Shown here: piece by piece, positions 43,201 through 46,200 of the stretch
Layout: the number at the start of each line of letters is the position of its first letter
Numbering within the stretch: position 1 is the first letter of the stretch
From: Gemmatimonadales bacterium
GTDB taxonomy: Bacteria > Gemmatimonadota > Gemmatimonadetes > Gemmatimonadales > GWC2-71-9
DNA: 58,470 nucleotides
Direction: 5' to 3'
Assembly (NCBI GenBank): GCA_041613315.1
Contig: JBFJHJ010000019.1
Coordinates: forward strand, 1 to 58,470
Made by a program: the position numbers

Positions 43201-46200
43201 ACCGTCTTGCGCCGAGCGATCGATTCGGACCGCGGAACGGACGAGCAGAAGATCGGGTTGCTCTACTGGCTGGGCCGCTGTGAGGAGGAGCAGGACCGCG
43301 GCTCGCAGGCGCTCGAATGTTACCAACGGGTGTTCGCGGTCGACATCTCCTTCGCCGACATCCGCAGCCGTGTGAAGAGCCTCGCCGGAGCGGCGAAGTA
43401 GGTGGCGCCGCAGCTCACGCGCGTCGCGCTGGCCGCGATCCAGCAGCCGGTGCGCGGCGAGCTGGACGCGTGTTTCGACGCGGTGGGCCGGATCATCGCC
43501 ACCGACTTCCCCCACATCGCCGACGTCAACGCCCACTTGTTGCGCATCAAGGGCAAGATGCTGCGGCCCACCCTGGCCCTGCTCGCCGGACGCGCCACCG
43601 GGACGCTGACGCCGCGCACGGTCACCCTCGCCGCGGTCGTGGAGTTGATCCATCTGGCCACACTCATCCACGATGACTCCGTAGATCACTCGGTGCTGCG
43701 GCGCGGGCAGCCGACCGTCAATGCCCTGTTCAGCCACCAGGTGGCGGTGATCATGGGCGACTACCTGTACTCGCGGGCGATCATCGAGTTGGTCCGCATG
43801 GACGACCTGGAGCCCCTCCGAGTGCTGAGCCGGGTGACGAACGAGATGACGGTGGGCGAGATGCGCGAGCTCGAGGCGCATGACTCGCTCACGTTTGCCC
43901 CCGAGGACTACGATCAGCTGATCGACGCGAAGACGGCATCGCTCATGGCAGGCGCATGCGAAGTCGGCGGGCTGGAAGCGGCGCCGGCCCAGCGCGCCGC
44001 CCTCCGGCGCTACGGCCGCGCCCTGGGCATGGCGTTCCAGATCACCGACGACCTGCTCGACTATACGAGCAGCGAAGACGTGACCGGCAAGCCGGCGGGC
44101 CTCGACTTGCGAGAGCACAAGATCACCCTGCCGCTCATCGCGGCCCTGCCGCTCATGGCGCCGGACGAGCGCCGAGTGGTGGAGGCCCTGATGGCCGATC
44201 CCGAGCCCGCGGACGACGCCATCGCCACGGTGGTGCGGATCGTCGAGGCCCGGGGAGGCATCGAGGCGGCGCGCGAACGGGCCCGGACGTTCGCCGACCA
44301 GGCGGAAGCCGAACTGGACGACCTCCCCGCGAGCCGTGCCCGCGACGCGCTGCGCGACGGCATCACCTATGCCATCGAGCGTCGGAGCTGAGCGTGGCCA
44401 TCGGACCCCGCCGTCCGCTCTTCTACCTCACCGTCCTGACGATCGGCTTCGTGCTGGGCGGCTTCCTATCGGCGCTGCTGCGCCGCTTCCTGCCGGCGGG
44501 ACCCGCCAAGGAGTTCTTTACCTGGACCGTCACCCCTTCCGTCGGGCCCCTACACCTGGATCTGATTATCTTTAGTGTGACGGTGGGGCCCTTGGCGGTG
44601 CAGGTGTCACTCTTGGGCATCGTGGGCATCGTTCTCGCGTACCTGCTCGCCCGATCACTCTTCTAAGCGAGGGTGCCGATGCCACTCATGGTGCTTCCGT
44701 TGATCGGCAATATCGGGATGCCAGAGCTCCTGGTCATCATGGCGGTCGTGCTGCTGGTTTTTGGGGCGAAGCGACTGCCGGAGATCGGAGCGTCGATGGG
44801 CAAGGGAATTCGGGAGTTCAAGAAGAGCATCCGGGATGTGCGGGAGAGCATTGAAGACAGCGATACCGAGACCACGGCACCCCCGCGCCAGATCGACCGC
44901 CCGGCGGCCCGGCCGACGGACGGGGATCCGAAGAAGCTGAGCGAGTAGCCCTACCGCCTTCCGCCGAACCCCAGCGGATTGGTCGCCCCGGGCGGGAGCC
45001 CGGGTTGGTCGGCCGCTTCCCGCTCCAGCCGCGCCAAGTCGCTGCGCCGATCCACCACGTTGGCCCGCTCACGCAGCGATGCCATGATGGCGTTGACCCG
45101 GGCCTGCCGCGCCTGCTGTAACACCTGTTGGCGAAACGCCTCGAGGTCGGCCACGAACGCCGCGCTGTCGGCCGGCACCTGGGCGATCGGCTCGACAAAG
45201 AAGATCGCCCGCTCCCCTTCGTAGGGACCTCCGGCCGTACCGACGGGGAGCCCGAAGGCCGCCCCGATGGCCTGCGGGGCGTCCTGCAGCACGGGCTGGA
45301 GCGGCACACGGGCGAATGGGCCGATCGTTCGCCCCTGCTGGCCTTCCGCCCGGGCGGCGTCGGCGAGACTCCTGCCGCGCCTCAGGTGGTCGGCAATCCG
45401 TGCGGCGCGTTCCCGGGTCAGCTCCCACCTGCGGGCGCGGCTCGCCGCCGCTACGACCTCGTCGCGGATGGCGCTGAGGGGCGGGACGGTCGCGGGCGCG
45501 ATGCTGTCGAGCCGGAAGACGTAGTAGGCCCACGGGGCTTCGATCACGGGTGAGGTCTCCCCCGGCAGCGACTCGAACGCCCACAGGCCGACGTCCGGCA
45601 CCGGGCGCGTCCCGAGCCGCAGCTGATCCCCCTGAAACAAGGCCGCCCGGTCGATCGGCAGCCGCATCCGGGCGGCCACCGTGTCGAGCGCCGAGGGCAC
45701 GGTCTGTTCGGCCGCCAGGATGTCCAGCGAGTCGGCCCGGGCGTCTACTTCCTCGAGGTGTGGCGCGCCGAGGCGGATGGGGATGAGGATGTGCCGGGGG
45801 TGATAGCCGTCGGCGCTCTTCGACTCGAGCTTGATGAGGTGATAGCCGAATTGGGTGAGCACCGGATCGGACAGCTGTCCGGGGCGCAGCGCCAGCGCCG
45901 CGTCCTCGAACGCGGGCACGAAGTCGCCCCGGCGCGCCGGGCCCAGGTCGCCGCCGTTCGGTCGCGTGACCGAGTCACCCGATTCGCGCTGCGCCACCTC
46001 GGCGAAATCGGCGCCGCGCCGCAGCTCCTGCCGGATCGCCTCGACCCGCTCACGCGCTGCGGCCGAATCGGCCGCGTTGGGCACGCGGGAGAGCGAGACG
46101 AAGCTGAGGAATACCCGCTGCGGTCGGCGGAACGCGTCCTGGTTGGCGCGATAATACGCGGCCACCTCCTGATCGCTGAGCCTCACCGAGTCGTCGGGCA

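Follow-up and report, generated by a model that had tools for sequence, protein, structure and literature searches.

What is the role of the small membrane protein of family DUF4321 that is encoded directly before tatA in a Gemmatimonadales bacterium, and does it belong to the Tat translocase? To our knowledge, the Tat pathway consists of TatA-family and TatC proteins only, and how TatA assemblies form and how leaks are avoided is still debated. If DUF4321 were an accessory of TatA, it would be the first component of the pathway to belong to neither the TatA nor the TatC family. A preliminary description of the locus proposed that it is such a component, perhaps replacing a missing TatB. In line with that description, a literature search with "DUF4321" and "PF14209" found no paper, and the pairing with tatA is the first functional lead for this orphan family. 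We analyzed the window (the whole 58,470-nucleotide stretch of contig JBFJHJ010000019.1) and compared its locus with those of other genomes.

The DUF4321 gene and its product

The features of the locus are listed in Table 1. The DUF4321 gene starts with an in-frame GTG inside the open frame 43956-44666. This GTG is located 2 nt past the stop codon of the polyprenyl synthase gene, and GGAG is found six bases upstream of it. The tatA gene starts with an ATG, with GAGG five bases upstream. The operon-like spacing of ispB, duf4321 and tatA is thus directly visible. A promoter/terminator scan of positions 43000-45400 revealed no promoter-like site above chance and one terminator-like match, inside tatA and at chance level. 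We infer that the three genes form one operon with a single transcript. A search for RNA evidence yielded five sequencing runs, all of them DNA data from marine metagenomes (two studies); one of these runs may be the source. The coordinates and gene calls of the preliminary description, with a 90-aa DUF4321 gene ending 12 nt before tatA on the same strand, were correct, as was the placement of the domain at residues 40-85, where the PF14209 match exceeded the gathering cut-off of 27 bits. A PpiD/SurA-like gene on the opposite strand is found downstream in most Gemmatimonadota loci.

Table 1. Positions of the putative ispB-duf4321-tatA operon and of other features in the window
Feature	Position	Strand	Basis and remarks
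Polyprenyl diphosphate synthase gene (IspB-like)	43402..44391	+	PF00348, E 4e-62; opens the putative operon
DUF4321 gene, predicted small inner-membrane protein of 90 aa	44394..44666	+	PF14209, 33.8 bits
Spacer of 12 nt with GAGG ribosome-binding-like motif	44667..44678	+	Read from the sequence
tatA/E-family gene, 89 aa	44679..44948	+	PF02416, E 1.2e-19; TIGR01411, 67.2 bits
Gene for a PpiD/SurA-like periplasmic PPIase, converging on tatA	44951..46828	-	SurA_N_2, Rotamase_2, Rotamase
TatC + LptD_2 ORF, 1168 aa	31597..35103	+	9.3 kb upstream of DUF4321; TatC domain N-terminal

The genome gave one match each for the tatA family (PF02416), TatC and DUF4321. The single tatA/B/E-family gene reported previously was therefore recovered, and this count is provisional because the genome, in 52 contigs, is only 82.9% complete. 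The gene is of the TatA/E subfamily (TIGR01411 cut-off, 53.9; PF02416, 69.7 bits versus 21), and as TatB it scored 38.1 bits with TIGR01410, under the cut-off of 56.5. Likewise, the one TatC lies in a fusion ORF, as had been stated (PF00902 at residues 14-225, TIGR00945 with 196 bits; PF19838, LptD_2, at residues 465-669). Overall, tatA and tatC are about 12 kb apart, and the genome holds no TatB-grade match.

The DUF4321 product resembles its family over the full length: family members have about 85 to 95 aa and conserved residues G18, G22, P34, G36, P52, G65 and G78, and the closest relatives likewise have 90 aa. At E<=1e-3, 113 representative homologues were found. Monomer models based on alignments of 46 (A1) and 90 (A9) sequences reached pLDDT values of 61.0 and 58.1, respectively. 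In these low-confidence models, helices were placed at residues 8-32, 37-43 and 73-89, and residues 45-71 were not modeled reliably. DUF4321 is probably a small inner-membrane protein with an N-terminal membrane helix that carries a GxxxG motif. After this helix there may come a Pro-x-Gly hinge, then a short amphipathic helix, and finally a second hydrophobic segment in which polar residues are conserved. The charge distribution suggests an N-in/C-in topology, both termini being probably cytoplasmic. We rejected the motif PRRPLF (residues 5-10) as a twin-arginine signal, since the RR is not conserved and the family consensus is R/K-K-S.

No NCBIfam model exists for DUF4321, a PDB sequence search returned chance matches only (E 1.3), and the ESM Atlas matches were confined to Gemmatimonadota DUF4321 clusters. 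Among the longer matches inspected, no DUF4321-TatA fusion was seen: P0127 is the tail of a polyprenyl synthase read through, P0144 is a probable chimera, and the rest are unrelated repeat proteins. Ten distant family members yielded one name, Elusimicrobia. PF14209 models 48 C-terminal positions only, and real members are missed: it detected DUF4321 in 181 of 201 Gemmatimonadota genomes, whereas a full-length profile found it in 61 of 61, and all five Pfam-negative genomes that were checked had a DUF4321 gene before tatA. This shows that the short Pfam model undercounts the family and distorts genome-wide neighbor statistics.

Conservation and separability of the DUF4321-tatA pair

In phyla other than Gemmatimonadota, 76 of 80 loci had a tatA-family gene directly downstream of DUF4321 in the same orientation, and one of the four non-adjacent loci is a contig end. 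The two genes were also adjacent in 40 of 54 Gemmatimonadota loci, in 27 of 30 loci from a sister phylum and in 5 of 6 loci of another phylum; in these four phyla, the gaps were short and the strand was the same. The two genes travel together, behind purQ, pssA or ispB, with 10 different neighbor families flanking the pair upstream and 18 downstream. The junction between them was better conserved than any other in the region: in the same 80 loci, purS-purQ was intact in 30 of 39 cases, psd-pssA in 26 of 28 and gatA-gatB in 29 of 38. Furthermore, it was the sole adjacency common to Gemmatimonadota and the other phyla. The preliminary description had cautioned that one order could inflate the pairing. 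Adjacency kept in at least four phyla with changing flanks is not a single-order artifact, and the pair is an old unit, which Gemmatimonadota have in common with at least three neighboring phyla. A conserved neighborhood with a tat gene, which we took as one mark of a Tat component, was found for DUF4321 in these four phyla but never beside tatC, which had no match among 214 DUF4321 loci.

The adjacency is far above chance and bimodal by lineage, being high in the four phyla versus 0 of 80 loci of the Nitrospirota/NC10 type. There, DUF4321 stands alone, with a divergent ffh as first or second gene upstream (56/80) and a convergent uvrB (68/80). Within Gemmatimonadota, none of the 13 loci of family f10 had the two genes side by side, and one tatA was located elsewhere in all four genomes checked. 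Genome G049 has lost tatA from the locus and kept DUF4321 (ispB-DUF4321 followed by ppiD), and DUF4321 was also kept at L020, L040 and L042, where tatA had left. Conversely, in a sister phylum (that of G243; 101 genomes), DUF4321 was detected in 60 genomes and TatC in 97, and 39 of the 41 DUF4321-negative genomes kept TatC. In four of five such negative genomes that were examined, pssA led directly into tatA, without a DUF4321-like ORF. Among 14 control genomes, 11 had TatA and TatC, and none had DUF4321 above the cut-off.

As these negatives and controls show, the presence of DUF4321 did not track Tat across genomes. Only G327 and G339, two genomes of which the completeness is not established, showed DUF4321 but no Tat. 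In addition, the neighbor table used earlier (9188 genomes with DUF4321, 4342 with both families) would imply that many genomes have DUF4321 without a called TatA. Since each gene can disappear or relocate independently of its neighbor, we read DUF4321 as neither a core Tat subunit nor a substitute for TatB. Of the proposal that it is a Tat component, the adjacency to tatA stands; against it, Tat persists without DUF4321, and DUF4321 is unlinked elsewhere. This separability matters as much as the pairing, and it warns against naming DUF4321 a Tat subunit on gene order alone. The pairing is real and old, which is no demonstration of membership in the export machine.

Possible functions of DUF4321

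The proposal that DUF4321 replaces a missing TatB, taking over its TatC-binding role in genomes with a single TatA-type gene, fits the present genome, where a single TatA-family match and none of TatB grade were found. Like DUF4321, TatB and TatE are small inner-membrane proteins encoded beside tatA, and the predicted order of N-terminal helix, hinge and short amphipathic helix is the same. Unlike them, DUF4321 probably has a second hydrophobic segment and an N-in/C-in topology, and it shows no sequence relationship: hhalign of DUF4321 (A1) against a TatA alignment (A5) gave a probability of 0.4% with 3 aligned columns, and the DUF4321 protein had no PF02416 match. Moreover, DUF4321 is followed by a tandem of two TatA-family genes in 30 of 76 loci, in 28 of 30 loci from a sister phylum and in 8 of 40 loci from Gemmatimonadota; it co-occurs with both copies and replaces neither. 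In Bacillus, the TatA of a TatB-less system is bifunctional. TatAC systems without TatB are also tabulated as normal: the minimal arrangement in which tatA and tatC occupy different loci ("C <-> A") is listed for Gemmatimonadetes, Chlorobia/Ignavibacteria and Sphingobacteria (PMC3827258, Table 1), and our genome, with one tatA, a separate tatC and no tatB, resembles the single Gemmatimonadetes species tabulated there. Where that survey deals with the surroundings of tatC, no conserved gene for a small membrane protein before tatA is mentioned (PMC3827258). With tandem tatA genes common beside DUF4321, no TatA/B similarity and tatC never adjacent, we regard the replacement of TatB as extremely improbable. 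The gene neighborhood also brings to mind a role at the membrane alongside lipid or polyprenyl metabolism, tatA being a bystander in the operon. In 41 of 54 Gemmatimonadota loci, the upstream gene in the same orientation encodes a polyprenyl synthase, in 13 of 13 f10 loci it encodes a PF07456 membrane protein ("heptaprenyl diphosphate synthase component I"), and pssA (CDP-alcohol phosphatidyltransferase) with psd is found upstream in 29 of 80 loci; a UbiA prenyltransferase gene lies downstream in three, and DUF4321 stayed with ispB in G049 after tatA had left. However, purQ is upstream instead in 41 of 80 loci, the Nitrospirota-type loci carry ffh and uvrB, and the lipid genes come from separate pathways. 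Because pssA remains beside tatA when DUF4321 is missing, it is tied to the locus and not to DUF4321. We therefore consider a lipid-related function improbable.

A lineage-specific link to TatA deserves more weight. DUF4321 could be a nonessential partner of the adjacent TatA-family protein in Gemmatimonadota and related phyla, made from one transcript with it; it could, for example, aid TatA insertion or assembly, hold a resting state or limit membrane leaks. The same-strand, short-gap adjacency in four phyla, the changing flanks of the pair and the universal presence of DUF4321 in the Gemmatimonadota searched with the full-length profile argue for such a partner. So do the tandem TatA pairs, in which the copy on the DUF4321 side was the more TatB-like one in 5 of 5 tested (TIGR01410, 40-52.6 bits versus 31 or none, all below the cut-off). 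Against it, Tat is kept without DUF4321 in the phylum of G243, the two genes lie apart in f10 and in loci of the Nitrospirota/NC10 type, DUF4321 is absent from most Tat-bearing model organisms among the controls, and plainly unrelated genes (pssA or purQ on the upstream side, gatA on the downstream side) also stay adjacent in the same loci and are conserved neighbors of tatA without a Tat role. Non-adjacency elsewhere says little, since tatC, an undoubted partner of TatA, is also unlinked from tatA in these phyla. As the preliminary description had conceded, gene order is the sole evidence, and we obtained nothing beyond it: a complex prediction with the TatC domain (A4), TatA residues 1-66 (A5) and DUF4321 (A1), run without controls, gave no answer (score 0.00). 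The tatABCD operon of E. coli also encodes TatD, a soluble nuclease dispensable for Tat export. Given this precedent, operon membership is no proof of a translocase subunit. DUF4321 resembles TatD in being kept in a tat operon, probably cotranscribed with tat genes, and differs from it in being a predicted membrane protein encoded before tatA. Overall, we judge the partnership with TatA possible but doubtful. Its stronger form, in which DUF4321 is an unrecognized accessory Tat membrane subunit in Gemmatimonadota, Calditrichota-like and KSB1-like phyla that tunes TatA insertion, oligomerization or sealing, seems unlikely, and we are just as skeptical that it is made stoichiometrically with a TatB-like TatA paralogue from one transcript. 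The reading that we prefer, at slightly less than an even chance, is that DUF4321 is a dispensable two-helix inner-membrane protein that is cotranscribed with tatA and probably has a wider membrane role. It may be a self-associating helper in the building or upkeep of the inner membrane. A general role of this kind would explain why its envelope-related neighbors differ by lineage (tatA, ppiD, pssA/psd, ispB, the PF07456 membrane protein gene and ffh), and it is a loose reading of varied neighbors, several of which are on the opposite strand. Against this helper, a pair that survives so much rearrangement usually points to shared function; an observation on the same side is that DUF4321, as predicted, and TatA are both small membrane proteins.

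A small membrane protein encoded before tatA in four phyla is in any case a candidate for an extra Tat player that is cheap to test. The loci with DUF4321 and tandem TatA genes include genera of this genome's own family.

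The DUF4321-tatA locus

A gene of the uncharacterised membrane protein family DUF4321 (PF14209) had been placed by the preliminary description directly before a tatA-family gene on the same strand, and this was borne out by the coordinates and by the Pfam and TIGR01411 (TatA/E model) scores. The window DNA is high-GC, and near-identical proteins bear names that assign it to Gemmatimonadota/Gemmatimonadales. The product read from the GTG start has the same length as its closest relatives (90 aa) and scored 33.8 bits (Pfam cut-off, 27). The GTG lies 2 nt past the polyprenyl synthase stop, with GGAG six bases upstream, and the 12 bases between the DUF4321 stop and the tatA start contain GAGG. 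Against the TatB model (TIGR01410), the tatA product scored 38.1 bits, below the cut-off of 56.5. TatA-family, DUF4321, and TatC gave one match each in the genome. Since this genome is 82.9% complete, the earlier statement of a single tatA holds provisionally.

Features of the window discussed in the text
Feature	Position	Strand	Remarks
TolB-like PD40 propeller gene	28019-29437	+	Tol-Pal group before TatC ORF
OmpA-family Pal-like gene	30242-30793	+	Tol-Pal group before TatC ORF
TPR/YfiO-like CpoB-type gene	30790-31569	+	Tol-Pal group before TatC ORF
TatC + LptD_2 ORF, 1168 aa	31597-35103	+	TatC residues 14-225, LptD_2 residues 465-669
Imidazolonepropionase-like amidohydrolase gene	39832-41019	+	Amidohydro_1 + HutI composite domain
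Polyprenyl synthase gene	43402-44391	+	PF00348, E 4e-62
DUF4321 gene, 90 aa	44394-44666	+	In-frame GTG start 44394 inside frame 43956-44666; Pfam DUF4321 match
TatA/E-family gene, 89 aa	44679-44948	+	PF02416, E 1.2e-19; TIGR01411, 67.2 bits vs 53.9
PpiD/SurA-like PPIase gene	44951-46828	-	Converges on tatA

A literature search for "DUF4321" and "PF14209" found no paper, and a DUF4321-type gene beside tat genes was mentioned neither in the Tat-neighbourhood literature search nor in the available portion of PMC3827258. The locus is a variant tat arrangement that includes an additional membrane gene of an uncharacterised family; to call DUF4321 a new Tat subunit would be premature.

In alignments of 46 and 90 family members, the DUF4321 N-terminus is basic (mean, 2.3 K+R), and the first hydrophobic helix carries G18 and G22 (GxxxG) and frequently E27. 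A P34-x-G36 hinge leads into a short amphipathic stretch with K39, F41, and F42, followed by the conserved P52. The second hydrophobic region contains D/N56, T63, an invariant G65, K70, N72, and G78, and the C-terminus is again basic. These charges suggest that both termini are cytoplasmic. AlphaFold models (mean pLDDT, only 61 and 58) showed helices at residues 8-32, 37-43, and 73-89 and left residues 45-71 without resolved structure. Alignment to TatA revealed no similarity (hhalign probability, 0.4%), and neither solved structures nor NCBIfam models included a relative.

Conservation of the junction within and beyond Gemmatimonadota

The Pfam DUF4321 model (48 positions) matched in 181/201 Gemmatimonadota genomes, including the unpublished G057, G097, G157, and G182, and a full-length profile in 61/61 (including G057). 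Furthermore, in five complete, Pfam-negative genomes of family f7 (G061, G064, G079, G132, and G141; loci L201-L205), the gene immediately preceding tatA is in every case an unambiguous homologue (E 1e-24 to 1e-28). Pfam-based counts thus underestimate both presence and adjacency, and genome-wide neighbour statistics resting on such matches are biased, because the model misses true members.

We compared 54 Gemmatimonadota loci: our own, 28 others scoring best with the full-length profile (omitting L240 of the unpublished G057), 20 from the remaining 31 profile-positive genomes, and the five of f7. Polyprenyl synthase lies upstream of DUF4321 in 41/54, with tatA directly downstream in 40 of these 41; in eight of the 40, two or three TatA-family genes stand in tandem. 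In G049, the polyprenyl synthase gene (ispB) and DUF4321 are followed by the PPIase gene (ppiD), and tatA is on other contigs. All 13 loci of family f10 (L241-L250, L253, L256, and L236) have a NusG_II protein, then a PF07456 membrane protein ("heptaprenyl diphosphate synthase component I"), then DUF4321, with a convergent PAS-GGDEF gene opposite and no tatA. The four f10 genomes checked each carry a single tatA at another site, which in the one annotated locus is flanked by cinA and ychF; no DUF4321-like ORF adjoins this tatA. TatC was present in 61/61 genomes of the Gemmatimonadota sample and in 39/41 f7 genomes; in many Gemmatimonadota genomes it shares a contig with DUF4321, at a distance of 5-27 kb. 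Synteny extends over the whole region across Gemmatimonadota, so adjacency within the phylum is not independent evidence, in line with the preliminary description's own caveat that shared ancestry inflates it within the order.

A species-genome scan with a pattern from DUF4321 alone yielded 80 loci, titled Calditrichota, KSB1, Zixibacteria, Eisenbacteria, Edwardsbacteria, Bacteroidota, "Deferribacteres," and a few Gemmatimonadota. Such assembly titles are a poor guide to lineage (one library phylum takes in loci titled Bacteroidota, Deferribacteres, Cytophagia, and KSB1); DUF4321 loci occur in at least three phyla besides Gemmatimonadota, namely those of genomes G243, G201, and G246. In 76/80 loci, DUF4321 is followed in the same orientation by a TatA-family ORF, and in 30 of the 76 by two in tandem. 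The other four comprise a contig end (L080) and three genomes with tatA elsewhere (L020, L040, and L042). The flanks are diverse: ten families upstream, among them purS-purQ (41 loci) and psd-pssA (29 loci), and 18 downstream, among them gatA-gatB (43) and a response regulator (9). True partner pairs in these loci were together less often (purS-purQ, 30/39; psd-pssA, 26/28; gatA-gatB, 29/38). Pattern-free samples agreed, with tatA adjacent in 27/30 loci from the phylum of G243 (some genomes overlapping with the 80 loci) and in 5/6 from that of G246. DUF4321-tatA is therefore the best-kept junction of the region, and it is the only one common to Gemmatimonadota and the other phyla. In the phylum of G201, DUF4321 was found in 22/31 genomes.

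Separability and candidate roles of DUF4321

Searches with distant DUF4321 members returned names from Nitrospira, NC10, Elusimicrobia, Omnitrophica, and Zixibacteria. None of 80 Nitrospirota/NC10-type metagenome loci (L121-L200) has an adjacent tatA, and in three a tatA pair lies ~3 kb off on the other strand; in most, DUF4321 stands by itself, with an ffh-rpsP-rimM group diverging from it on one side and uvrB converging on it from the other. In the phylum of G243, DUF4321 occurs in 60/101 genomes and TatC in 97/101 (both counts including the unpublished G331). TatC is present in 39 of the 41 DUF4321-negative genomes, and two DUF4321-positive ones, G327 and G339 (completeness not given), had no TatC match. 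Four of five DUF4321-negative genomes examined (loci L297, L299, L300, and L301) have pssA immediately before tatA and no DUF4321-like ORF; the locus is the same, lacking DUF4321 alone. Control genomes had TatA and TatC in 11/14 cases and DUF4321 over the cut-off in 0/14. No tatC lay within any of the 214 screened loci.

The preliminary description had proposed that DUF4321 might substitute for a missing TatB. In the G243 phylum, a sister phylum, two TatA-family genes usually come after DUF4321 (at least two TatA-family domains in 28/30 sampled loci), and the same arrangement occurs in genera of our genome's own family. The tabulated portion of PMC3827258 (Table 1) lists one tatA/E, no tatB, and one tatC at separate loci for the one species of Gemmatimonadetes surveyed, and the same pattern for Chlorobia/Ignavibacteria and Sphingobacteria. 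Thus, a missing TatB needs no stand-in, DUF4321 is not tied to TatB absence, and we consider this role very improbable. In five tandem pairs (L005, L007, L044, L053, and L075), 10/10 genes passed the TatA/E model and all fell below the TatB cut-off; in each pair the copy beside DUF4321 scored 40-52.6 bits with the TatB model, and the other 31 or none. Judged by these scores, such pairs may represent a TatB-like/TatA-like division of labour missed by curated models.

A functional tie to tatA is favoured because this particular junction is conserved in four phyla, only short gaps separate the genes, and both products are located in the membrane. A dedicated Tat role is opposed by the loss of each gene in genomes that retain the other, by genomes that keep both unlinked, and by the lack of the family in most Tat-bearing organisms. 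Moreover, unrelated genes (pssA, purQ, and gatA) are conserved tatA neighbours in the same loci, and by the preliminary description's own figure TatA is called in fewer than half of DUF4321 genomes. Non-adjacency alone weighs little, since tatC, too, lies apart from tatA in these phyla. We tentatively prefer, at somewhat below an even chance, a dispensable protein of the inner membrane that would have a wider role at the membrane and share an ancestral operon with tatA. A lineage-specific TatA accessory is the less probable reading, at roughly a third, and a lipid or isoprenoid link, with polyprenyl synthase and psd-pssA genes among the varied neighbours, appears unlikely. The locus is worth a bench test.

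Other features of the loci

Although pssA and tatA are not known to share a function, they stay linked in the DUF4321-negative genomes; three of the four loci continue with an adenosine-specific kinase gene. In the window, Tol-Pal genes (28019-31569, + strand) lie immediately 5' of the TatC ORF. Stop-free frames of ~1170-1390 aa spanning TatC were seen in numerous genera belonging to this family, and TatC frames of ~250-400 aa in other Gemmatimonadota families; the TatC-LptD_2 ORF has the look of a genuine inner-membrane/outer-membrane fusion, or a read-through, specific to the family. Two long ORFs (36459-38093 and 37241-39760) lie upstream of the imidazolonepropionase-like amidohydrolase gene, and this region may be a histidine-utilisation cluster.
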